NCBI GenBank assembly: GCA_965228895.1
Contig: OZ245842.1
Coordinates: forward strand, 1,536,001-1,600,000
Source: Alphaproteobacteria bacterium
GTDB taxonomy: Bacteria; Pseudomonadota; Alphaproteobacteria; SP197
Direction of reading: 5' to 3'
Length of the DNA: 64,000 nt
Part shown: positions 29,424-56,848 of the stretch, piece after piece
Layout of the letters: each line of letters begins with the position of its first letter
How positions within the stretch are numbered: position 1 is the stretch's first letter
Position numbers and translations under genes: made by a program
The notes under the pieces: model-generated
The model's database searches: none
Told to the model about the DNA's origin: nothing
What the model saw: only the letters and a program-made list of their open reading frames with translations

Positions 29424-29554
29424 GATCTCGTCCCCGTTTTTGCCGGAACCAGCATAGTCTGCACCTATGCGCTTGCTCGTCAAAATTGCTTTGCCTTGGC
29501 TTCGGGCCGGGGACAGACTTTGCCCCTGTTTCGCGACTTCGGGGAGGGCAAACC

Positions 29555-30955
29555 ATGCTTCGCAACGTTGATTTCGACACCAAGGACCTGTGGGAGAAAG
29601 ACCGCGATCACGTGATCCATCCGTGGACCGACTTTTCCCAGTGGCAGGAAAAGGGCTCGGAGGTCATGGCCCAGGCCGAGGGCGTCTATGTCTTCGACAC
29701 CGAGGGCAACCGGTTCATCGACGGTATCGGCGGGCTGTGGTGCGTCAACATCGGCTATGGCCGCGAGGAGATGGCTGATGCGGTGGCCGAGCAGATCCGC
29801 ATGATCCCCTATTATTCACCGTTCCATCATCTGACCACGCCGCCAGCGGCCCTTCTGGCCGACAAGCTCGCCGAACTGACGCCCGGTACGCTGAACCACA
29901 CGTTTTTCGGCACCGGGGGTTCGATGGCCAACGACACGGCGATTCGCTTCGTCCACTACTACTGGAACATGAAGGGCGAGCCCAAACGCAAGAAGATCAT
30001 CAGCCGGGTCGATGCCTATCATGGCTCGACCTATCTGGCGGCCGCGCTGACCGGCATCGCTGCCGACCGCATCTGTTTCGACCAGGCCGACGAGCTGATG
30101 GAGCACGTGTCCTGCCCCTATCCCTATCGCCGGCCAGAGGGGATGAGCGAGGCAGACTTCTGCGATCATCTGATTGATGAGCTGAAGGAACGCATCGAGA
30201 CGGTCGGGGCCGAGAACATCGCGGCGTTTATCGCCGAACCGATCATGGGCGCGGGCGGTGTCGTCGTGCCGCCCGAGGGCTACCACAAGCGGACCCTCGA
30301 CCTCTGCCACGAGTACGACATCCTCTATATCTCTGACGAGGTGGTGACGGCGTTCGGCCGTCTGGGGCACTTCTTCGCGTCGGAGGATGTCTTCGGCATC
30401 ACGCCCGACATCATTACCTCGGCCAAGGGCATTTCATCCGGCTATCAGCCGCTCTCGGCGACCATCATCAACGAGAAGATGTACGACGTCCTCTCCAAGC
30501 CACAGGAGGAGGGTGCGCTCTTCACCCATGGCTTCACCTATTCCGGCCATCCCGTGTGCTGCGCGGCGGGCCTGAAGAACATCGAGATCATGGAGAACGA
30601 GGACATTCCCGGCCACGTGCGCAAGGTCGGCCCGTACTTCGAGAAGAAGCTGGCGGAGCTCAATGATCTGCCGTTGGTTGGCGAGGTGCGCGGCAAGTGC
30701 TTCATGATGTGCATCGAAAACGTCGCCAACAAAGAGACCAAGGAGTTGCTGCCGCCTGAAGTCGACGTTGGTCATCGGATTGCCGATCATGCGCAAAAGC
30801 GCGGGCTGATCGTGCGGCCGCTGGGCCACCTCAACGTCATGTCGCCGCCGCTGATCCTGACCGAACCCCAGATCGACGAGTTCGCGTCCGTGCTGCGCCA
30901 GGCGATCGAGGCGACCCAGGACGACCTGGTGCGCGAAGGTATCTGGAACGGCTGA
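29555..30955 (+). CDS. Class III (omega-amine) aminotransferase, HinC/SpuC-like
   Basis: GLWCVNIGYGR, YHGST, AEPIMGAGG, DEVVTAFGRLG, SAKG. Confidence 0.9.
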   Translation: MLRNVDFDTKDLWEKDRDHVIHPWTDFSQWQEKGSEVMAQAEGVYVFDTEGNRFIDGIGGLWCVNIGYGREEMADAVAEQIRMIPYYSPFHHLTTPPAALLADKLAELTPGTLNHTFFGTGGSMANDTAIRFVHYYWNMKGEPKRKKIISRVDAYHGSTYLAAALTGIAADRICFDQADELMEHVSCPYPYRRPEGMSEADFCDHLIDELKERIETVGAENIAAFIAEPIMGAGGVVVPPEGYHKRTLDLCHEYDILYISDEVVTAFGRLGHFFASEDVFGITPDIITSAKGISSGYQPLSATIINEKMYDVLSKPQEEGALFTHGFTYSGHPVCCAAGLKNIEIMENEDIPGHVRKVGPYFEKKLAELNDLPLVGEVRGKCFMMCIENVANKETKELLPPEVDVGHRIADHAQKRGLIVRPLGHLNVMSPPLILTEPQIDEFASVLRQAIEATQDDLVREGIWNG

Positions 30956-32647: not shown

Positions 32648-33829
32648 CTACATACCGGCCAGGATGTTTTCGTAGAGCGACACGATCTCGCCGTAGCGGT
32701 TCTGGTAGGACGAGAACACGCCGCTGGCCAGGAACGCCTCGATATCGCGGGTCAGGCCGACGGAGGCCAGATACTCGTCGGTCACCTCCGGCATCTCGTA
32801 GACCTTCTTGTTGACGACACCGTAACCCCAGTTCAAGAGCTCATAGACCTGTGATTCCGGATCGACATAGGCATCGATCAGGTCGTGGGCCTGCTCATAG
32901 AGACCCCGCTCTTTGGCGCCGGGATTAAGGGCCAGGCCACAGACCCAGGTCAGCGCGCCTTCCTTCGGGTTCATCCAGATGTACTTGCCTTCGGTACCGC
33001 TGGCGGCCATTTCTTCACTCGCCGTCAGCATCATGCCGTTCCACGCTGCCGAGGCCACAACCTCGCCCGAGAACAACGCCTGGGTCATGGTCGTCACATC
33101 ACTGGTCAACAGCCGCAGGAGCGGTATGCCCTCGCGAACCTTGTTGGCCACCAGTTCGATTTGCTCATCGTTCATGTCGAGGAAATCGATGCCCAGGTAG
33201 ATGGCGATCAGGTTGAAGTGGTCTTCGACCGCGTCGAACATGGCCAGACGACCAGCCAATTCCTCATCGTAGAAGATGCCCCAGGAATGAGTGGCGGGAT
33301 CCTTGTACTTCGGTGCCAATTCGGTGTTCACGATGATGGCCGTCTGACCCCAGTCCTCAGGCACCCACAGCGGCGTGCCGTCTTCGAGTGACGCGCCGGG
33401 CACGTGTTTCATGGGTTCGGCGATGTCGTCCCAGTGGCTGATCAGGCTGACGTCGATCGGCTCGACAACACCGGCGTCGTACCACAGCTTGATCTTCGAC
33501 GAACACGGGAAGGTGACGTCGCACTCAAAGCCAGCGCGCATCTTAGAGAGCGCTTCGGCTTGGTCGGAGAAGAACGAATACTGCGGCGGCGAGCCATACT
33601 TCTCGGTATAGGCCATCGCGAAGTTTTCGTCTTCATAGCCGCCCCAGGTGAACATCATGAGATCGCTGCCCTCAGCGGCATGGGCGGGGCCGGTGAGCGG
33701 CGCTGCCATCGACATAACGCCTGCCGAGGCCAGAACCTTGTGTGCCTGTCTGCGGGTCAGTTTACCCTCGCAGATCTTGTCCTTGAACTCGTTGGCACAC
33801 ATGAGGGGTTTTAGTTTATCCATTCGCAA
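32648..33829 (-). CDS. Polyamine-type ABC substrate-binding protein (PotD/PotF-like), Tat-like signal
   Basis: TRRQ motif, FTWGGY, PEDWG, NPKEGALTW. Confidence 0.82.
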   Translation of the reverse strand: MRMDKLKPLMCANEFKDKICEGKLTRRQAHKVLASAGVMSMAAPLTGPAHAAEGSDLMMFTWGGYEDENFAMAYTEKYGSPPQYSFFSDQAEALSKMRAGFECDVTFPCSSKIKLWYDAGVVEPIDVSLISHWDDIAEPMKHVPGASLEDGTPLWVPEDWGQTAIIVNTELAPKYKDPATHSWGIFYDEELAGRLAMFDAVEDHFNLIAIYLGIDFLDMNDEQIELVANKVREGIPLLRLLTSDVTTMTQALFSGEVVASAAWNGMMLTASEEMAASGTEGKYIWMNPKEGALTWVCGLALNPGAKERGLYEQAHDLIDAYVDPESQVYELLNWGYGVVNKKVYEMPEVTDEYLASVGLTRDIEAFLASGVFSSYQNRYGEIVSLYENILAGM

Positions 33830-34054: not shown

Positions 34055-34978
34055 CTAGCGTTCACTCTGCTCGGCCAGCAGGTCGGGCAGGTGGGCGCGG
34101 CAGACATCGGCAAAGGCCAGTGCCATGCGCGTGGGGCGTGATGTGGCGAGCCGGGCAAGGCCCATGCGCATCTCGCGGCGCGGTTCGCGAAGCGGCACGG
34201 ACGCTAGGCTCGATCCGTCGAGCGCGCGGTGATGGGGTGCGCGCGAGTGCAGGAGACTGTAGCCGTAGCCGTTGGCGACCAGGCCGCGCACCATCTCGAA
34301 CGATGTGGTCTCGTAAGCGATGTTGGGTTCGATGCCGGCTTCGGCGAATACCGACAGGAAGTGGCTGCGGCTCTCGGGCAGACCGAGCAGCACCAGGGGC
34401 TCGCCTTCCAATTCCGTCAGCTTGACGGTCTTCTTGTCGGCGATGCGGTGCTCGGCGGGCACGATGACATGGATGGGAACCGTGACCAGCGGTTCGAAGT
34501 CGATGTCCTGGGGCATGTTGAGATCGTAGGTGACGGCGAACTCATAGCGTCCGCGCCTGAGGCCCTCGGGCAGGGCGCGCAGGTCTTCCTCGTGGGGGCG
34601 AACGCGGATCGCCGGGTGTTCGCGGGCGAAGACGCGCAGCACGCCGGGCAGCACGAAGGGCGCGAAGGTCACGAAACAGCCGATATCGAGATCGCCCTCC
34701 AGCGCCTCGCCCAGACCGGCGGCATCCTGGGTCAGCTCTTCCGCATGGGCCAGAAGCTCGCGCGCGGAGGCAAACAGGCGCCGTCCGGCCGGCGTCAGCG
34801 ACAGGCCCTGGGCGTGGTGTCGTATGAAAAGCTGCAGCCCGAACACGTCTTCCAGATGGCTGATCGCCGCCGAAACGGAGGGCTGCGACACATGGGTCGC
34901 TTCGGCCGCACGCGTGATGCTGCCGGCCTCGGCGGCCGCCACGAAGTAACGAAGTTGCTTCAGGGTATAGAGGATCAC
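34055..34978 (-). CDS. LysR-type regulator, HinK-like
   Basis: LKQLRYF HTH, SQPSVS, LFIRHHAQG, IGCF, EMVRGLVANG; divergent from the monooxygenase operon. Confidence 0.9.
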   Translation of the reverse strand: MILYTLKQLRYFVAAAEAGSITRAAEATHVSQPSVSAAISHLEDVFGLQLFIRHHAQGLSLTPAGRRLFASARELLAHAEELTQDAAGLGEALEGDLDIGCFVTFAPFVLPGVLRVFAREHPAIRVRPHEEDLRALPEGLRRGRYEFAVTYDLNMPQDIDFEPLVTVPIHVIVPAEHRIADKKTVKLTELEGEPLVLLGLPESRSHFLSVFAEAGIEPNIAYETTSFEMVRGLVANGYGYSLLHSRAPHHRALDGSSLASVPLREPRREMRMGLARLATSRPTRMALAFADVCRAHLPDLLAEQSER

Positions 34979-35013
34979 GAAAATCTATCCTATACGTCGC
35001 ATAAATATCTTTT
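34974..35013 (+). promoter_or_regulatory. Putative LysR operator/promoter motif, copy A
   Basis: ATCACGAAAATCTAT (T-N11-A) then CCTA-N13-TATCTTTT; near-identical layout at 53713..53752. Confidence 0.6.
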
Positions 35014-35073: not shown

Positions 35074-36525
35074 ATGCTGATGACCGGCGACCAGTACCGT
35101 GAGTCTCTAAAAGACGGCCGCGAGGTCTATATCGACGGCGAGCGCGTCACGAACGTGCCGGAACATCAGGCCTTCAAGCCGATCGTCGATGTGCGCGCGC
35201 GCATCTACGATATGGCGGGCGAAAACGCATTCCGCTCCACCATGGCGTTTTCCAAGGACGGCGAGGACTACGCCGTCGCCTGGCAGCCGCCCTATACCCA
35301 GGACGACTGGTGGGCCAAGCGCGATTGGGTCGACACGGTCATGAAGGAGATCGGCGGTGTCGTAACCCGCATCGGCGACGAGACGGTCGGTGAGATGTGG
35401 TCGCTGGCCGACGGCAAGGACATCTTGAATCAGGTCGATGACTCCTGGTCGAAGAACATCGATCACCACATCGACAATGTGCTGAAGAACGACATCTTCC
35501 ACGTCTCCGCCAACACCGATCCCAAGGGCGACCGCTCAAAGGCGCCGCAGGATCAGGACCCCGACATGCTGCTGCATGTGGTGAAGGAGACCGATGCCGG
35601 CATCGTGGTGCGCGGCGCCAAGTACGAAACCGCGGCCGCCTACGCCCATCAGGCCTTCGTCAAGCCGACCATCGCCAACTGGGGCGATGCCAAGCTCTCC
35701 GACTACGCGCTCGGTTTCATCTGCCCGATGAACGCGGAAGGTCTCAAGCACATCTGCCGCAATGGTTTTGCCGGGGTCAAACCAAAGGCCGACTATCCGC
35801 TCTCCAACGGTTTCGACGAGGTCGACACGCTGCTTGTCTTCGACAACGTGCTGGTGCCTTGGGAGAACGTGTTGTTCTACCGGCACACGGCGGCGGCCAG
35901 TTTCATTCGCGGCACGCTGCATCGCTACAGCGCCTACATGTTCGTCTTGCGCATCATGTACATCGCCGACCTCATGATCGGAACGGCGCTCTTTAATGTG
36001 CGTCAGACCGGCCTCGACAAACAGCAGGCGGTGCAGGAGAAGCTGGCGCAGCTGGCCTGTTACCGCGAAGGCATCAACGCGCATTTATCCGGCGCCATCG
36101 CCTTGGCCGAGAAGAGCCCCGGCGGCTTCCTGATGCCCAACCAGTCGCTGCTCTATACCGGCCGTGTGCTCGCCTGTTCACAATTGCCGGCGATGATGCA
36201 TCTGGCGCGCGAATTGTGCGGCGGTCAGATCTGTGTCACGCCGGACAGCCCATCCTTCTTGTCGGACGACACGAAGGCGTGGATGGAAAAATTCTACAAC
36301 GTCAACGACGATTGGCAGGCTGACGACCGGCGCAAGCTTCTGGCGTTCGGGCGCGACTTGCTGAATTCCGACTATGCCGGCCATAAGGTGACGTTCCAGT
36401 TGTTCGCCCAGTCGCCGCCATTCGCGCATCTGGGCGCCGTCTACCGCAACTTCGACTTCGATCAGTCGCTGGGCTTCGTCAAAACCGCGGCTGGTCTGTC
36501 GGACCGGGTGATGGCCAAGAAGTAG
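35074..36525 (+). CDS. 4-hydroxyphenylacetate 3-hydroxylase (HpaB/PvcC)-family monooxygenase, oxygenase component
   Basis: TGDQYRESLKDGREVYIDGERV, DPKGDRS, GIVVRGAK, FDEVDTLLVFDNVLVPWE. Confidence 0.88.
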   Translation: MLMTGDQYRESLKDGREVYIDGERVTNVPEHQAFKPIVDVRARIYDMAGENAFRSTMAFSKDGEDYAVAWQPPYTQDDWWAKRDWVDTVMKEIGGVVTRIGDETVGEMWSLADGKDILNQVDDSWSKNIDHHIDNVLKNDIFHVSANTDPKGDRSKAPQDQDPDMLLHVVKETDAGIVVRGAKYETAAAYAHQAFVKPTIANWGDAKLSDYALGFICPMNAEGLKHICRNGFAGVKPKADYPLSNGFDEVDTLLVFDNVLVPWENVLFYRHTAAASFIRGTLHRYSAYMFVLRIMYIADLMIGTALFNVRQTGLDKQQAVQEKLAQLACYREGINAHLSGAIALAEKSPGGFLMPNQSLLYTGRVLACSQLPAMMHLARELCGGQICVTPDSPSFLSDDTKAWMEKFYNVNDDWQADDRRKLLAFGRDLLNSDYAGHKVTFQLFAQSPPFAHLGAVYRNFDFDQSLGFVKTAAGLSDRVMAKK

Positions 36526-36562: not shown

Positions 36563-36979
36563 ATGGCGCATCAGCGTTTCCGCAAGTTCAACACCAAGGC
36601 CATGTATCCCGAGCAGTCGCTTGACAACGATCTGTGCATGGTCGTACGCGCCGGCAACATGGTCTTCATGCGCGGCCAGACCGGTTTCGATCTGGACGGA
36701 AATTTTCATGGCGTCGGCGATGGCGCGGCCCAGGCCGAGCAGGCCATGAAGTGCGTCAAGCAGCTTCTTGAGGAGGCCGGCGCCAAGCTGGAGCATATCT
36801 GCAAGGTCACGATCTATCTGACCGACCCGCGTTACCGCGAACCCGTCTACAACGTCATCGGCAAGTGGCTGAAGGGCGTCTATCCGGTATCGACAGGTCT
36901 TGTCGTCCAGGCACTGGCCAAACCGGAAATGGTGATGGAAATCGACGTCGACGCGGTGATCCCGGACGGCGAAGGTTGA
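36563..36979 (+). CDS. RidA/YjgF-family protein (HinL-like)
   Basis: RAGNMVFMRGQ, ICKVTIYL, PVSTGLVVQALA, EIDVDA. Confidence 0.85.
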   Translation: MAHQRFRKFNTKAMYPEQSLDNDLCMVVRAGNMVFMRGQTGFDLDGNFHGVGDGAAQAEQAMKCVKQLLEEAGAKLEHICKVTIYLTDPRYREPVYNVIGKWLKGVYPVSTGLVVQALAKPEMVMEIDVDAVIPDGEG

Positions 36980-36983
36980 CGTC

Positions 36984-37658
36984 ATGACCTTCTCGCTGAC
37001 CGCCCGCTGCGCCCAAACGGGCATGTTCGGTATCGTCGTGACGTCGTCCAGCATTTGCGTCGCGACGCGCTGCGCCTGGGTCAAAGGCCAAGTTGGCGCG
37101 GTCGCCAGCCAGAACATCACCGATCCCGGTCTGGGTCTTATGGGATTGGACTTGTTGGAACAGGGCTATGGCGCGGCGGCGGCCATGGAGATCCTGATCA
37201 AGGCCAGACCGTTCAGTGACTACCGCCAACTCGCCCTGATCGACCGTCTGGGCCACACGGCTCACCACTCGGGATCCGGCGTGCTGGGGACGAACAACAT
37301 CGTGGAGGGGCGGGACTGTATCGCGGCCGGCAACCTGCTGAGCACGCCCGACGTGCCCAATCACATGGTCAAGGCGTTCGAGAGCTCGGTCGGCGAACAT
37401 CTCGCTGAGCGTCTGCTGCAGGGCGTTGAAGCCGGCTTGGCGGCCGGTGGCGAGGAAGGCGACGTCAAATCCGTCGGCATCAAGGTGTGCCACGACCATG
37501 CGTGGCCGATCTGCGAGATGCGCGTCGACTGGCACGACGAGCCGATCGCCGAGCTGCGCCGTGTCTGGCAGGCCTATGAACCGCAGATGGCCGATTACAT
37601 ACAGCGCGCGCTCGACCCCACCGACGCGCCGTCTTACGGCGTACCCGGCGATCCTTGA
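36984..37658 (+). CDS. DUF1028 Ntn-hydrolase-like protein (HinH-like)
   Basis: N-terminal MTFS, GAVASQ, YRQL, AAGNLL, RVDWHDEP. Confidence 0.85.
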   Translation: MTFSLTARCAQTGMFGIVVTSSSICVATRCAWVKGQVGAVASQNITDPGLGLMGLDLLEQGYGAAAAMEILIKARPFSDYRQLALIDRLGHTAHHSGSGVLGTNNIVEGRDCIAAGNLLSTPDVPNHMVKAFESSVGEHLAERLLQGVEAGLAAGGEEGDVKSVGIKVCHDHAWPICEMRVDWHDEPIAELRRVWQAYEPQMADYIQRALDPTDAPSYGVPGDP

Positions 37659-49752: not shown

Positions 49753-50688
49753 TCAGAGGTTCCTAGGCGTCGCTTGCGCCATCTGACGCCGGCGTTCGCG
49801 CTCGCCGGTCAGTGTATCGCCGACCACGGCCGCCAGGACGAGGCCGCCACCGATCAGGGTGAACGGTCCGGTCGTCTCGCTGAAAGCGAACCACACCCAC
49901 AGTGGCCCCAGCACCACCTCTACGAGATTGAGCAGCGCGACCTCGGCGGCCGGCACGTAACGGGCGCCTACGGTGATGAAGTAACAGGCCAAGCCAAGCT
50001 GGAAGACGCCCAAGGCGACAGTCAGGCCAAGGTCATGCGCGGATAACGACAAGCCAACGCCGGTCACAACAAAACACATGAAAAGCGCCGCGATCGTGCC
50101 CAGCAGACCGCCAAAGGCGGCAACTGGCAGCATCTCGATGTTTGGTTTGGATCGCAACGCAACCAGAAAGACGGCCAGTCCCAGAGCAGCGGCGGCCGCC
50201 GCGACGTTACCCCACAGATGGCCGAACGAGATATTCTCAGCCACCATCACGGCCACGCCCACCAGCGACACGACAATCGCCAGCCACGTCGCCAGTCTGA
50301 CATGTTCGCCCAAGAACAGACGTCCCAGGATCGCGGCCATGAAGGGTGCGGCCGCCAGCAGGAACATGGCGTTGGCGACCGTTGTCGACTCAATGGCGAT
50401 GATGATGCCGCAGAATGCAACGGCGATGCTGACACCGCCGACAATCGTCGCACCGGCTGCCTGGCGAAACGTATTGAGGATCTGGCCGGGGTTGCGCCAT
50501 GCTATGATGATCAGCAAGAACACCATCATGGAAAAGGAGCGCAGGGCCAGAATCTGCCAGGCCGTCGCGTCCTCCATCATGCGGACGCCTAAACCCATCC
50601 AGGACGACGCCAACGCGCCCAAAAGGACGAGAACGATTCCTCGGCGATAGCCGCCGGAACGGGCCGGTTGGACCGCAACGACACTCAT
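49753..50688 (-). CDS. DMT/EamA-family transporter
   Basis: About ten TM in two EamA repeats, LFLGEHV, EVVLGPLWVW. Confidence 0.88.
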   Translation of the reverse strand: MSVVAVQPARSGGYRRGIVLVLLGALASSWMGLGVRMMEDATAWQILALRSFSMMVFLLIIIAWRNPGQILNTFRQAAGATIVGGVSIAVAFCGIIIAIESTTVANAMFLLAAAPFMAAILGRLFLGEHVRLATWLAIVVSLVGVAVMVAENISFGHLWGNVAAAAAALGLAVFLVALRSKPNIEMLPVAAFGGLLGTIAALFMCFVVTGVGLSLSAHDLGLTVALGVFQLGLACYFITVGARYVPAAEVALLNLVEVVLGPLWVWFAFSETTGPFTLIGGGLVLAAVVGDTLTGERERRRQMAQATPRNL

Positions 50689-50779: not shown

Positions 50780-51949
50780 TCAGGCGGAAGCCCTGAAAAA
50801 GGCCCGGCACGCATCGGCAAAGGCCGTGGCGATGGAGGAAAGTTCGGTACCTGCCTTGCGCGCCAGGACGATTTTGCTGGCCGCGGCGTTGTCGGCGAGG
50901 GGACGTGCGACCAAAGCACGGCCGTCATAGGTCATGTTCGACGCCGGCTTGGTCGCGAGCAATGCGTAGCCAAGGCCATGACCGACCATGCCGCGGACCA
51001 TTTCGAGAGATCGTGAGCGAAAGCGGATGACCGGATCGTGGCCGCTCTGTTCGAACAGCGACAGAAAGTAGTCCGCGCTGGGTGGCGCATCGAGAAGGAT
51101 CATCGGTTCGCCTGCCAATTGTTCGAGCGACACGCTGGACCGGCCGGCCAGCGGATGGCCCTCGGCGAGCAAGACGTACGGCTTCAGGGCGTCGAGCGCC
51201 TCTTTCTCCAGGTCATCGCCGAGGTCGAGGTCGTAGAGAAGGGCGATTTCGGTCTCGCCCGACTTCAGGCCCTCGACGACCTGGCGCTGGTCGCCGTCGT
51301 GGAGTTGCAGTTGCGCTGCCGGGTGTTCGTCGACGAGGCGCGACAACAGCGCAGGCACGAGGTAGGGGCCGAACGTGTGAAAGCAGCCCAGGCGCAGCGG
51401 TTCCATTACGTTATCGGTCGCGTCGCCGCGCAGGCTGTGGATGCGCGTGGGCGTGCCGTAGGCGCGGTTGGCATAGATCAACGGCGAGCCGTGCGGCGCG
51501 ACGAAGATATCCTCGACCGCGCCCAGAAACACATGATGGGTACCGATACGTTCGCCGCTGACCATGCGGCAGTCGAACGCGACGAGGGGATCGACAACGC
51601 GCGGTGCCCCCGTGGTCTGGACCGTCCAATCGGCGCAAGAAAACTTGTCACCGTCATCGGTCTCGATCCGTCCGGCGAACGTATCGGAAATGAAAGACTG
51701 ATCGTCACGCAGCACGTTGACGCAGAAGACACCGTTTTCCAGGATTGCCGCAGCCGACGCGCTCTTGTGGTGCACACACACCAGCAGTGTCGGCTGCGGC
51801 GTATCCGCCGACACCGATGACATCGCCGAGACCGTTACCCCAGTCCGGCCGGCTGCACCATCGGTGGTCACCACGTTGACGGTGCAGGCGGCATGGCTCA
51901 TGCCGTTGAAGAACTGCTGCTTCAGATCGGCGTCGGTCAGGTCGTTCAT
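50780..51949 (-). CDS. HpaC/RutF-like flavin reductase fused to a LysR substrate-binding domain (no HTH)
   Basis: N-terminus VVTTDG, GVTVSAMSSVS, GTHHVFLG, PLIY; C-terminus LGCFHTFGPY, EPMILLD, LEMVRGMVGHG. Confidence 0.85.
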   Translation of the reverse strand: MNDLTDADLKQQFFNGMSHAACTVNVVTTDGAAGRTGVTVSAMSSVSADTPQPTLLVCVHHKSASAAAILENGVFCVNVLRDDQSFISDTFAGRIETDDGDKFSCADWTVQTTGAPRVVDPLVAFDCRMVSGERIGTHHVFLGAVEDIFVAPHGSPLIYANRAYGTPTRIHSLRGDATDNVMEPLRLGCFHTFGPYLVPALLSRLVDEHPAAQLQLHDGDQRQVVEGLKSGETEIALLYDLDLGDDLEKEALDALKPYVLLAEGHPLAGRSSVSLEQLAGEPMILLDAPPSADYFLSLFEQSGHDPVIRFRSRSLEMVRGMVGHGLGYALLATKPASNMTYDGRALVARPLADNAAASKIVLARKAGTELSSIATAFADACRAFFRASA

Positions 51950-51991
51950 CGTTATCGATCCCTAGTTTGTTTCCGCTCATGCGGAACCGTT

Positions 51992-52081: not shown

Positions 52082-53617
52082 CTACGCCACGTCGTCCAGG
52101 TTCTGAGGCAGCATCGGCGAATGCTCGGCGAACCAGTGGGCGATCGTGCTGTCGCTGGTGCCTGGCGCCTTGTTCTCCAAGGTCTGATCAGACAAGTCTG
52201 CGACTTTGTGCATGAAGCGCATCGGACCGTCCCAATAGAAGTTGCGATAGACCGCGGCCAGATGCGCGAACGGCGGCGATTGCGCGAACAACTGGAAGGT
52301 CAGCCGGTGCCCGGCATAGTCCGAGTTGAAGAGATCGCGGGCGACGGCCAGCAGCTTGCGCCTGTCGTCGGCGGCCCAGTTGTCGTTGATGGTATAGAAC
52401 TTCTGCAGCCACGCGCTGGACTCGCCGTCGCTGAACGAGGCGGCGTCGGGCGTGACGCAGATCTGTCCGCCGCACAGCTCGCGTGCGATATGGACCATCG
52501 CCGGCAGGTTGGAACAGGCGTGCACGCGGCCCGTATAGAGCATCGACTGGTTCGGCATCATGAGGCCGCCCGGGCTCTTCTCGGCCAGCGAAATGGCGGC
52601 GGTCAGATGGGCGTTGATGCCTTCGCGGTAGACCGCGAGCTGAGCCAGTTTCTCCTGCACGGCCTGCTGTTTGTCGAGGCCGGTCTGGCGCACGTTGAAC
52701 ATGGCCGCGCCGATCATCATGTCGGCGAACTTCAGGTTGCGCTGCACGAAGGCGAACGCCGAGTACCGGTGCAGGGTCGCGCGGATGAAGGTCGCCGCCT
52801 TGGTGTGGCGATAGAACAGCACGTCTTCCCAGGGAATCAGCACATTGTCGAAGACGACCAGGGAGTCGACCTCGTCGAATTGGTTGGAGAGCGGGTAGTC
52901 TTCCTTCGGCGCGCGTCCGGCAAAACCGGTGCGGCACAGCATCTTGATGCCGGGCGTGCCGAGATCGCAGATAAAGCCGACGGCGTAGTCCGACAGCGCG
53001 TCCGAACCCCAGTTGGCGATGGTCGGTTTGGTGAACGCCTGGTTGGCGTAGGCTGCCGCGGTTTCATACTTGGCACCGCGCACGACGATGCCGGCGTCGG
53101 TCTCCTTGACCACGTGCAGCAGCATGTCCGGGTCCTGCTCCTGGGGCGGCTTGGAACGGTCGCCCTTGGGATCGGTGTTGGCGGAGACGTGGAACGGGTC
53201 ACCCTTCACCACCTTGTCGATGTGCCGGCGGATGTTCTCGGAGAACTGCGGGTCGACCTCGTTCAAGACGTCTTGACCGTCGAACAGGGACCACATTTCG
53301 CCGACCGTCTCGTCGCCGACGCGGGTGACGACGCCGTTGATGTCTTCGAACACCGCGTCCGTCGAGCGGCGTTTTTCCCACCAGTCCTTCTCGGTCCGCG
53401 GCGGCTTCAGGCCAACGGCGAACTTTTCGCCGTCCTCCTCATAGGTCATGACATCGGCGGTGGCGGGGTCGTGCGCCATGTCATAGATGCGCGCCCGGAT
53501 ATCGACCAGGGGTTTGAACATGGGATGCGACGGCACGTCCTTGACCTTCTCGCCGTTGACGTAGACCTGCCGGTCGTCGCGAATGGAATCGATGTACTCC
53601 TGGCCCGTCCTGATCAT
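52082..53617 (-). CDS. Second HpaB/PvcC-family monooxygenase oxygenase component (paralogue of 35074..36525)
   Basis: Long identical stretches with the first copy (FHVSANTDPKGDRSK, GAKYETAAAYA, QTGLDKQQAVQEKLAQLA). Confidence 0.88.
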   Translation of the reverse strand: MIRTGQEYIDSIRDDRQVYVNGEKVKDVPSHPMFKPLVDIRARIYDMAHDPATADVMTYEEDGEKFAVGLKPPRTEKDWWEKRRSTDAVFEDINGVVTRVGDETVGEMWSLFDGQDVLNEVDPQFSENIRRHIDKVVKGDPFHVSANTDPKGDRSKPPQEQDPDMLLHVVKETDAGIVVRGAKYETAAAYANQAFTKPTIANWGSDALSDYAVGFICDLGTPGIKMLCRTGFAGRAPKEDYPLSNQFDEVDSLVVFDNVLIPWEDVLFYRHTKAATFIRATLHRYSAFAFVQRNLKFADMMIGAAMFNVRQTGLDKQQAVQEKLAQLAVYREGINAHLTAAISLAEKSPGGLMMPNQSMLYTGRVHACSNLPAMVHIARELCGGQICVTPDAASFSDGESSAWLQKFYTINDNWAADDRRKLLAVARDLFNSDYAGHRLTFQLFAQSPPFAHLAAVYRNFYWDGPMRFMHKVADLSDQTLENKAPGTSDSTIAHWFAEHSPMLPQNLDDVA

Positions 53618-53712: not shown

Positions 53713-53752
53713 AAAATATAACTTTCCCAAGCGTAGGATAGTTTTTTCTAAT
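53713..53752 (-). promoter_or_regulatory. Putative LysR operator/promoter motif, copy B
   Basis: - strand ATTAGAAAAAACTAT-CCTA-N13-TATATTTT, same spacing as copy A. Confidence 0.6.
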
Positions 53753-54539: not shown

Positions 54540-54557
54540 ATCCGGCGACAGATCGGC

Positions 54558-55298
54558 CTAAGCCGCCCTCTTTAAAGCGCCATCGAAGTCACTGCGCCAG
54601 GCGGCGAAGCCAACGACGTAGTTGTAGCCGCAAACGGTCTTGAGATCGCGACCGTCGACAATGTCGACGATTCGGTCGGCGCATTCCCGCGTGGCGTCCT
54701 TCGGCCCGTGGGGGTTGAGACGCATCTTCGCGCCGGGCGGAAAGGCGTAGTCGCAGGCGAACAGCACGTCACCCAGAATGTACATCGTCCAGCCAGGTGA
54801 ATGGCCGCCGATATGAAAGGCTTCGAGGTCGCCGTGTTTGAAGTCGCCAGTGAACTTGTCGTCGACAGGGAAAGCCGCGACCAGCGGATTGGCGGCGTCC
54901 GCCTCATGCAGGTGGACCTTGCAGTCCCATAGCGCGCGGTACTGGTTCGACGCGCCCAGGAAGTCCTTGTGGGTGAAGAAGATGTGGTCGACCGGCTGAA
55001 GATTTCGGTTGAAGGCGGACGGACAGTCGATCCATAAGGCGCCATTCTTGCCTTCGATACGATAGGCCGCGTGTTCGATGCCCAGGCGCGGCTGGGACAT
55101 CAATTGGGTCACCCGGTCTGTCACCGGCTTGGGCGTCACCGTATAGCCCTGCTCGGTCTCATCCCACGTTTTGAACTTGTCATGGCGTGCGCCGCAGAAC
55201 GGGCAGACATCCGGCATCTCGCCGATCATGTTGTAACCGCAGGTCAGGCACACCCATTGCTGGGTGGGAAAGTTCATGGGTAAGGGTCTGTCGAGCAT
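54558..55298 (-). CDS. Rubredoxin-like domain fused to a metallo-beta-lactamase-fold protein
   Basis: CLTC-x12-CPFC; FFTHKD, LHEAD, GGHSPG. Confidence 0.7.
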   Translation of the reverse strand: MLDRPLPMNFPTQQWVCLTCGYNMIGEMPDVCPFCGARHDKFKTWDETEQGYTVTPKPVTDRVTQLMSQPRLGIEHAAYRIEGKNGALWIDCPSAFNRNLQPVDHIFFTHKDFLGASNQYRALWDCKVHLHEADAANPLVAAFPVDDKFTGDFKHGDLEAFHIGGHSPGWTMYILGDVLFACDYAFPPGAKMRLNPHGPKDATRECADRIVDIVDGRDLKTVCGYNYVVGFAAWRSDFDGALKRAA

Positions 55299-55327: not shown

Positions 55328-56848
55328 TCAGCGGTCGAAGCGCAGGACGTCGCGCGCTTCGGCTTCGTGCCAGTTGCCACGATAATAACGCACGGCGGCG
55401 TCGTCGAACGGCTGGAAATCGACGGGCGTGCGCTTGCCGGTCATCAAAGCCTTGTTGACCAAGGCGTTGCGGCGCTGCTTGGTCAGGATGCGTTCAGTCA
55501 GCGCCTTGAGCGGCCAGCGCTGGCGCACCTCCGACTCGAAGCCCTCGACCTCCGCCTTACAGTCTAGATCGTGCACCAAATTGTCCCGTTCATCGGGGTC
55601 GTCGGCGAGGTCGAAGAGAGAGCAGGGGCCGCCCTCCCAATGCACGAACTTCCTGGTGCCCCGCCGGATCATGACGCCAGGCGCCCTTACGCCTTCGAAA
55701 AAGATCTCCGATGCCGTTTCGTCCCGCCAGGCCGCGCCGTCGCCGGTGATCAGCGGCATCAGGCTGCGCCCTTCGACCGGCTCGACCAACGCGTCGGTGC
55801 CGCCGTCGAGTGCCATGTCGAGCAGGGTCGGCATCAGATCGATCAGCGATGTTGCCTGGGCAACACGGCGCGTACCCGTCATGCCGGGGATGTGCACCAT
55901 CAGCGGCACGCGCGCTGAGCGTTCGTAGAAGCTCATCTTGTACCAGCAGCCGCGCTCGCCCAGCATGTCGCCGTGATCGGCGGTGAAGATGATGATCGTG
56001 TTGTCGTTCAGACGCGCGGCTTGCAGCGCGTCCAGCACCCGGCCAATCAGATCGTCGACCAGGGCAATCGAGCCGTAGTAGCCGTGGCGCGCGGTGCGGA
56101 TGTGCTCGTCTGTCACGTCAAATTCGCCGCGATCATAGTGGCGGTAGAGCCACTGACCGTGGGCGTCGCGTGCTTCCGGCGCGATAAACGGCACGGTGGG
56201 CATGTCGATATCATCGGCGCGGTAGCGATCCCAATAGGCGGGCGGCGTGACGTAGGGATCGTGAGGGTGGGTGAACGACACCTTCAGGCAGAACGGCCGC
56301 TCGTCGCCGCTTCGGGCGTAGTCATAGATCCAGCGCACAGCAAGGTGCGCGGTATCGTCGTCGTGATCGAGTTGTGTGCCGCGTTCGACGATACCCGCCT
56401 CGACGACATTCTTGAGGTCGTGGAACCAGGGCAGAATGCGGTCGGGCTCGTCCCAGATACCATACCAGTGATTGTCGGCCGGACAGATGTCGGTGGTCAG
56501 CCGCGTCTCCAACCCGTGCAACTGGTCGGGGCCGATGTAATGCGCCTTGCCGCTCAACACCGTCGCATAGCCGCCGGCGCGCAGATAGTGCGCGAAGGTC
56601 GGCGTCGACCACGGGTAATCGCAGCCGCTGTCGAAGACGTCGACCGCGGACGGCAGACGCCCGGTCATCAACCCCGCCCGCGCAGGCACACAGAGCGGCG
56701 CGTTCGAGTAGTGCGCATCGAAGATGACACTGTCGGCGGCGATAGCGTCCAGCCGCGGTGTCTTCACAATCTTGTGCCCATAGGCCGGCAGGAAGTGCGG
56801 CGCGAGCTGGTCGGCCATCAAGAACAGGATGTTGGGCTGGGTCGTCAT
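55328..56848 (-). CDS. betC: Choline-sulfatase-like sulfatase
   Basis: PNILFLMADQ, CVPAR (CxPxR), GPDQLHG, HPHDPY, DHGDMLGERG. Confidence 0.75.
   Translation of the reverse strand: MTTQPNILFLMADQLAPHFLPAYGHKIVKTPRLDAIAADSVIFDAHYSNAPLCVPARAGLMTGRLPSAVDVFDSGCDYPWSTPTFAHYLRAGGYATVLSGKAHYIGPDQLHGLETRLTTDICPADNHWYGIWDEPDRILPWFHDLKNVVEAGIVERGTQLDHDDDTAHLAVRWIYDYARSGDERPFCLKVSFTHPHDPYVTPPAYWDRYRADDIDMPTVPFIAPEARDAHGQWLYRHYDRGEFDVTDEHIRTARHGYYGSIALVDDLIGRVLDALQAARLNDNTIIIFTADHGDMLGERGCWYKMSFYERSARVPLMVHIPGMTGTRRVAQATSLIDLMPTLLDMALDGGTDALVEPVEGRSLMPLITGDGAAWRDETASEIFFEGVRAPGVMIRRGTRKFVHWEGGPCSLFDLADDPDERDNLVHDLDCKAEVEGFESEVRQRWPLKALTERILTKQRRNALVNKALMTGKRTPVDFQPFDDAAVRYYRGNWHEAEARDVLRFDR

Follow-up and report, generated by a model that had tools for sequence, protein, structure and literature searches.

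The window analysed here is a stretch of 64,000 nucleotides from an alphaproteobacterial genome (GenBank assembly GCA_965228895.1, contig OZ245842.1, positions 1,536,001 to 1,600,000 of the forward strand). It carries a gene for a 389-amino-acid (aa) protein, hereafter the fusion, in which a flavin reductase is followed by a linker and by an effector-binding domain of the type found in LysR-type transcriptional regulators (LTTRs). Directly upstream on the same strand, across a gap of 132 nt, lies the gene for an HpaB-family oxygenase component of 511 aa with HpaB_N and HpaB domains (HpaB511); an earlier note made from the sequence had reported this oxygenase neighbour. The same note had described an uninterrupted open reading frame (ORF) of 389 codons at the place of the fusion, in which an HpaC-like reductase is joined to a complete LysR substrate-binding domain lacking the helix-turn-helix (HTH). 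The frame itself stands and the Pfam scan bears out both domains, but the orientation had to be corrected, as the ORF runs uninterrupted from 51949 to 50780 on the minus strand and the plus-strand frame holds two stops. A second group of related genes, without a reductase, lies 14 kb from the fusion (Table 1).

A flavin reductase joined to a LysR-type sensor domain

The N-terminal part of the fusion belongs to the Flavin_Reduct family PF01613 (residues 17–166, E 2.3e-32, 112.7 bits against a cut-off of 27, profile positions 1–151 of 153), whereas the more specific NCBIfam equivalogs for RutF (TIGR03615, 133.7 vs 254.75 bits, E 5.6e-39) and HpaC (TIGR02296, 113.9 vs 205.95 bits, E 6.6e-33) stayed below their cut-offs. 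Among solved structures in the PDB, the domain matched CobR (3cb0, E 8.5e-31, 40% identity) and also TftC (3k86). An alignment of 143 fusions held 20 invariant columns, every one of them in the reductase domain and including S41, M43 and H138, and the conserved core of the family is thus kept. NAD(P)H-dependent reduction of free flavin mononucleotide or flavin adenine dinucleotide (FMN/FAD) by the fusion is predicted, supported by this conserved core.

The C-terminal part is a two-lobed LTTR effector-binding domain (PF03466 LysR_substrate, residues 184–384, E 9.9e-41, 139.9 bits against a cut-off of 28, profile positions 7–207 of 209). The LTTR DNA-binding family HTH_1 (PF00126) did not match, residues 1–170 being reductase, and the HTH region of the full-length LysR encoded in the window (34055–34978) was unmatched in all 81 fusions compared. 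The fused domain aligned without gaps to the effector domain of this local LysR (39% identity over 199 residues, E 8e-48), and the kinship that the earlier note had read from short peptides (GCFHTF and EMVRG in the fusion, GCFVTF and EMVRG in the regulator) is therefore genuine. The closest solved relatives of the sensor were 3fzv and 6m5f (E 1.3e-48 by sequence; 41–43% identity over about 210 columns by fold), the latter being titled HinK of Pseudomonas aeruginosa (PA0218), and the domain also fold-matched those of BenM, CatM and CysB. HinK is the regulator of the Pseudomonas histamine pathway. In a review, HinK is described as responding to imidazole-4-acetate, not histamine, with mutants that place the ligand between the two lobes, and as controlling a monooxygenase/enamine-deaminase/amidase operon in which imidazole-4-acetate is the monooxygenase substrate (PMC8231116).

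Five positions of the sensor (T192, S291, S314, E316 and R319) were each at least 90% conserved across 43 fusions, and HinK and the local LysR carry the same five residues, which would suit an intact putative ligand site. In the AlphaFold2 model T192, S291 and S314 directly precede helices 194–208, 291–301 and 315–323, and the loops that are conserved in its LysR subfamily have been retained by the sensor. In the final helix a cysteine, C381 (window about 50807–50809), was invariant in the 43 fusions and at least 90% conserved in 143, and both HinK and the local LysR carry a cysteine at the equivalent position.

Two AlphaFold2 models, built with 43 and 143 sequences, were confident for both domains (mean predicted local distance difference test, pLDDT, of 84 and 87). 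The segment between the domains fell below a pLDDT of 50 (residues 159–179 and 160–179, respectively), and most of it was without any consensus residue in the fusion alignments.

The fusion is widespread among Proteobacteria

A fusion unique to this assembly was one of the outcomes on which the earlier note would have abandoned its reading, yet in a search of a 5.8-billion-protein set all 120 of the 120 best listed homologues, which we examined with Pfam, carried both domains (59–92% identity, 375–473 aa). Their source names were either “LysR substrate-binding domain-containing protein” or “flavin reductase ... RutF”, and the family is listed without a function. Contigs representing one genome per species yielded at least 440 relatives among 599 candidate stretches. 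The best 80 of these at least 440 relatives were used for all locus analyses, with flanks of up to 8 kb on each side. All 80 were full length (57–93% identity, matching the query from residue 1–9 through 370–389), and in 79 the match extended to at least residue 382. They included Alphaproteobacteria (Methylobacterium, Microvirga, Hwanghaeella, Terrihabitans, Roseobacter and Paracoccaceae) as well as Gammaproteobacteria (Arenicellales and Steroidobacteraceae). An assembly artefact or a frameshift that joined two genes, which we also considered, is ruled out by the 120 two-domain homologues together with the 80 full-length genome loci.

More distantly, 24 full-length fusions were found among the 150 best representatives of clusters at 50% identity, with sensor identities down to about 24%. 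The spread is patchy, since the full fusion occurred in 3 of 41 relatives' genomes, all three of the window's own genus. One of the distant representatives (P0163) was used as a query to ask whether the type of sensor tracks the type of oxygenase; no orthologue of it was found in 401 sampled Pseudomonadota genomes, and both of its domains were matched in only three of them (G000 and two other fusions, 33–36% identity).

Two further matches concerned the reductase domain. In another alphaproteobacterium (G069:C1:3993885-3994367, L118) a domain with 53% identity to residues 10–170 of P0163 lies inside an 855-aa frame, which may be a different reductase fusion. The 321-aa “putative oxidoreductase” SMa0793 of Sinorhizobium meliloti (PDB 3rh7) was matched through its flavin reductase part alone, and since the match is confined to chain residues 29–176 this protein carries a further domain.

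Gene neighbourhood and partner oxygenases

To characterize the surroundings of the fusion, the 80 loci were searched with the proteins of the window, counting as HpaB orthologues those with at least 50% identity, and the neighbours were assigned to families by scanning cluster representatives with Pfam and NCBIfam. An HpaB orthologue was present in 37 of the 80 loci and stood directly upstream of the fusion on the same strand in 26, to which can be added L051, where HpaB overlaps the fusion start. Other frequent neighbours were DUF1028 (36 loci), RidA/L-PSP (34), a HinK-like full-length LysR (28) and an ArgE-type M20 hydrolase (22), while a Rieske oxygenase (8), an old yellow enzyme (OYE)/Pyr_redox_2 enzyme (8) and a class-III aminotransferase (6) were rarer. 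The usual order is HpaB, fusion, RidA, DUF1028 and LysR, then a divergent M20 gene, often accompanied by a polyamine-type ATP-binding cassette (ABC) transporter. In several Rhodobacterales (L058, L059, L067, L073 and L103) the gene for a Rieske oxygenase alpha subunit precedes the fusion by 14–48 nt, standing between HpaB and the fusion in three of the five loci, and a Rieske enzyme might thus be another oxygenase that the fusion supplies or for which it acts as a sensor.

The Hin pathway of Pseudomonas putida offers a counterpart to this gene set. As listed in PMC6467879, it comprises the aminotransferase HinC, the aldehyde dehydrogenase HinD, the FAD-monooxygenase HinF (EC 1.14.13.5), the enamine deaminase HinL and the amidases HinH and HinG. 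By enzyme type, the fusion operon appears to parallel hinFLHG/hinK, except that a two-component oxygenase takes the place of HinF.

As for the oxygenase itself, HpaB511 scored below both 4-hydroxyphenylacetate 3-monooxygenase equivalogs, HpaB-1 and HpaB-2 (237.6 bits against the 480.2 of TIGR02309 for one, 165 vs 885.2 for the other), and its best PDB match was the HpaB of Thermus (E 5e-53). In that alignment Arg100 is kept, whereas Tyr104 and His142, which we take to hold the phenol hydroxyl in the Thermus enzyme, are replaced by Glu and Ser, and these replacements hint at a non-phenolic substrate for HpaB511.

Three close relatives (L013, L014 and L024), whose fusions are 92–93% identical to that of the window, are missing HpaB511. 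Their DNA aligns to window positions 54547–53599, a segment that takes in the adjacent gene, the promoter and the initial ~19 nt of HpaB511, and picks up again at 51974, 25 nt ahead of the fusion start. The three have thus undergone a clean deletion of about 1.6 kb (window 53598–51975). The opposite event, an insertion of HpaB511 in the source genome, was considered and rejected, because the relatives retain the promoter and the beginning of the gene. As the deletion joins the promoter directly to the fusion, the reductase was retained when the adjacent oxygenase was lost.

The 5.53-Mb source genome, a single contig, encodes one fusion and three HpaB paralogues. The second paralogue, HpaB483, belongs to the operon 14 kb from the fusion, in which the LysR gene on the minus strand is followed by HpaB483, RidA and DUF1028 on the plus strand, with an aminotransferase and a binding protein nearby. 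No reductase gene was found in this operon. The local LysR, to which the fused sensor is akin, is not a stray paralogue but regulates this second copy of the operon, which lacks a reductase, and the single fusion probably supplies both HpaB511 and HpaB483. The third paralogue lies outside the window (C1:1834649-1836103, L012:5649-7103; 484 aa, 64% identity), where its neighbours encode a 2-hydroxyacid dehydrogenase, a Rieske oxygenase, a non-Pyl MttB methyltransferase, a protein with a Pyr_redox_2/OYE second domain, a PALP enzyme and an M24 creatinase-like peptidase. No reductase was seen among them, and the region looks like a quaternary-amine or osmolyte catabolic island.

Table 1 Features of the window that bear on the fusion, with positions in the window
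Feature	Position	Strand	Basis or remark
Fusion gene, 389 aa: flavin reductase, linker, HTH-less LysR effector-binding domain	50780..51949	-	ORF, translation, Pfam
Reductase domain (residues 17–166), short-chain HpaC/RutF/CobR class	51452..51901	-	PF01613
Variable linker (about residues 160–179), predicted disordered	51413..51472	-	pLDDT <50, alignment
LysR effector-binding domain (residues 184–384), HinK-like	50798..51400	-	PF03466, PDB matches
HpaB511, HpaB-family oxygenase component, 511 aa, first gene of the operon	52082..53617	-	HpaB_N + HpaB (Pfam)
EamA/DMT transporter, 91 nt downstream of the fusion	49753..50688	-	PF00892
14-nt box AAACTATCCTACGC, upstream of HpaB511, candidate shared operator	53731..53744	-	12/14 identical to box 34982–34995
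14-nt box AATCTATCCTATAC, divergent LysR/HpaB483 intergenic region	34982..34995	+	Likeness to AAACTATCCTACGC
Full-length HinK-like LysR regulator (HTH_1 + LysR_substrate)	34055..34978	-	Pfam
HpaB483, second HpaB-family oxygenase, 69% identical to HpaB511	35074..36525	+	Sequence comparison
RidA/L-PSP family protein, enamine/imine deaminase type	36563..36979	+	PF01042
DUF1028 protein	36984..37658	+	PF06267, E 3.5e-60
Class-III (omega) aminotransferase	29486..30955	+	Orthologues 64–65% identical inside the fusion operon of L043 and L055
Polyamine-type periplasmic binding protein (SBP_bac_8)	32648..33829	-	Family scan

The two HpaB genes of the window share a 14-nt box in their upstream regions, of which the whole 5.53-Mb genome holds three matches at up to one mismatch, and its core 8-mer is retained with one mismatch in L013 and L024. 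As a signal of co-regulation the box is a weak, genus-level lead. The third genomic copy (C1:3284572, L113:5572) is intergenic, beside genes with a T4 gp19 tail-tube domain in a contractile tail-like element. On the other side of the fusion, the EamA/DMT transporter gene is possibly co-transcribed with it, its synteny with the fusion extending, among the best 80 loci, to the three close relatives only. Beyond HpaB511 the minus strand encodes a protein of 246 aa whose sole family match is a rubredoxin-like zinc ribbon at its N terminus (RUBY_RBDX; 54558–55298), and adjoining it a sulfatase with a choline-sulfatase C-terminal motif (55328–56848); both genes are syntenic in close relatives.

A putative ligand-gated reductase and its rivals

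The reading that we favour, to which we give a chance somewhat short of even, is that the fusion is a ligand-gated reductase that turns on flavin reduction only with the pathway substrate, in the service of an HpaB-type two-component system. Within a two-component flavin monooxygenase of the HpaB type, the protein would be the component that reduces flavin with NAD(P)H, and this reductase would have gained, minus its DNA-binding domain, the effector-binding domain of the pathway's own family of LysR regulators (HinK-like). The sensor would bind the pathway substrate and the binding would turn the reductase on, so that free reduced flavin, and the H2O2 that it forms with O2, would be made only when the substrate of the oxygenase is available. 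The pathway substrate, the presumed ligand, is most likely a small heterocyclic or amine-derived carboxylate, and we infer imidazole-4-acetate, the compound that the earlier note had proposed to test, as the leading candidate because HinK is the nearest solved relative of the sensor and the operon mirrors the hin genes. A broader version, which we put forward tentatively and regard as less likely than not, holds that in hundreds of Proteobacteria LysR effector domains would serve as allosteric switches of an enzyme instead of DNA binding, that the same metabolite would control both transcription (through a HinK-like LysR) and flavin supply (through the fusion with its captured sensor), and that the partner would be an undescribed pathway with a two-component HpaB-type imidazole-4-acetate monooxygenase, replacing the single-component HinF.

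Several observations weigh against the ligand-gated reading or its parts. For every member of the family, ligand binding and gating are inferred, and at 42% identity HinK is no firm guide to what the fused domain binds. The AlphaFold2 models predicted no defined contact between the sensor and the reductase active site and reached a predicted template modelling score (pTM) of merely 0.54 and 0.60, and the relative placement of the two domains is consequently not predicted; docking of the reductase (residues 1–168) against the sensor (180–389) with 43-row alignments, run without controls, gave a score of 0.00, which counts neither for nor against a contact. Of the 80 loci, 23 were without any of the searched partner genes within the flanks. 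Five genomes with such partner-less loci were searched, of which three encode an HpaB orthologue elsewhere (68–69%), while an HpaB match at E 1e-20 was absent in the other two, which are metagenome-assembled genomes of unknown completeness. Taken with the partner-less loci, these two genomes mean that the partner is not fixed. The likening of DUF1028 and M20 to HinH and HinG is by enzyme type, not by sequence. The pattern of the 14-nt box was derived post hoc from the two HpaB sites, and its core 8-mer (up to one mismatch) stood upstream of HpaB in just 8 of 35 other loci. Finally, a tree of 142 effector domains placed the 81 from fusions and the 61 from full-length LysRs, the latter chosen by likeness to the query, on opposite sides of one branch, but this split was weakly supported (Shimodaira–Hasegawa-like approximate likelihood ratio test, SH-aLRT, 49); the tree allows a single origin of the fused sensor.

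The absence of an interdomain contact in both models and the frequent separation of the fusion from an oxygenase (the 23 partner-less loci) would fit a purely structural LysR domain, serving for dimerisation, as a scaffold or for docking to the oxygenase or other pathway proteins, with a constitutive reductase and control left to transcription. LysR effector domains are indeed dimerisation modules; however, HpaC-type reductases dimerise by themselves and need no such addition, and the five sensor positions, which flank the starts of cleft-facing helices, are conserved at 90% or more and are common to ligand-sensing relatives, which exceeds what a scaffold would need. We consider this explanation unlikely, if still worth weighing. 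A different signal, either a product from further down the pathway that would brake the reductase by feedback, or redox state or peroxide as in OxyR, through which the sensor would tune the reductase to demand or stress, is in our estimate distinctly unlikely. The OxyR model NF008361 does match the domain (E 3.1e-17), as do the structures 1i69 and 1i6a, and C381 is strongly conserved among the fusions; yet the OxyR matches are far weaker than that to HinK (E 1e-16 vs 1e-48), and the cysteine is probably structural, since HinK, a non-redox sensor, also has one there.

There remains the proposal that the fused sensor pairs with the full-length HinK-like LysR of the pathway, as an anti-activator or co-sensor that ties the reductase or flavin state to expression. 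Such a paralogous regulator is present in 28 of the 80 loci and in the window, and both domains have the conserved surface positions of the subfamily. Against this stand the 52 loci with no such LysR nearby and the place of the fused domains on their own side of the tree, at 31–40% identity to the co-located regulators, a large distance for a hetero-interface, and we judge the pairing quite improbable.

Significance and comparison with known systems

Free reduced flavin is wasteful and forms peroxide, and how two-component monooxygenases keep from reducing flavin idly is a genuine problem, for which there is to our knowledge essentially one worked example of such control so far, the reductase C1 of the p-hydroxyphenylacetate (HPA) hydroxylase system. 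The fusion described here is real and widespread, and its gating would be a known principle, that of C1, realised with a different sensor fold. Were this true, ligand-gated reductases would have arisen no fewer than two times, from sensor folds that are unrelated; the LysR effector domain, which is the commonest small-molecule sensor of bacteria, would be seen to control an enzyme directly; switchable biocatalysis could draw on “sensor + reductase” parts that are modular by nature; and the result would point to an unstudied HpaB-type pathway for imidazole-acetate-like compounds in marine and soil Proteobacteria. A literature search, with most subscription journals outside it, brought up nothing on the fusion and nothing on an HpaB-type imidazole-acetate oxygenase. 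The source genome, with its reductase-less operon and with sister genomes that lost the oxygenase and kept the fusion, is convenient for asking which oxygenase the fusion serves.

Of the known systems, RutF, HpaC, CobR and TftC share the fold and the conserved core of fusion residues 10–166 and are suppliers of free flavin to two-component oxygenases, but they are single-domain proteins of about 150–185 aa and, unlike the fusion, have no sensor. HinK has an HTH and binds DNA, where the fusion has a reductase in its place. HinF of Pseudomonas is described as a single-component FAD monooxygenase (PMC6467879), in contrast to an HpaB-type oxygenase with a separate reductase.

The nearest parallel is C1 itself. 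The oxygenase partnered by C1, C2, has an acyl-CoA-dehydrogenase fold, unlike the HpaB-type partner of the fusion. The earlier note had named the C1 of Acinetobacter baumannii HPAH, with its fused MarR-like domain, as an established precedent, and PMC11618861 confirms it, describing a reductase with a C-terminal NadR/MarR-like domain that binds HPA, the substrate of the oxygenase, and exerts allosteric control by which reductase activity is released. C1 (5zc2) and the fusion both consist of an N-terminal short-chain flavin reductase, then a flexible loop and then a C-terminal domain of a transcription-factor family, but the sensor of C1 is all-helical and NadR/MarR-like, whereas that of the fusion is a two-lobed LysR effector domain. 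Homology covers the reductase only (5zc2_B, E 3.1e-08, fusion residues 13–169), and the C1-type model NF045919 was likewise matched only at its positions 10–164 of 309 (51.4 bits against a cut-off of 340). With the likeness limited to this part, a ligand-gated fusion would be an independent invention. It is striking that in both C1 and the fusion the sensor is drawn from the family of the pathway's own regulator.

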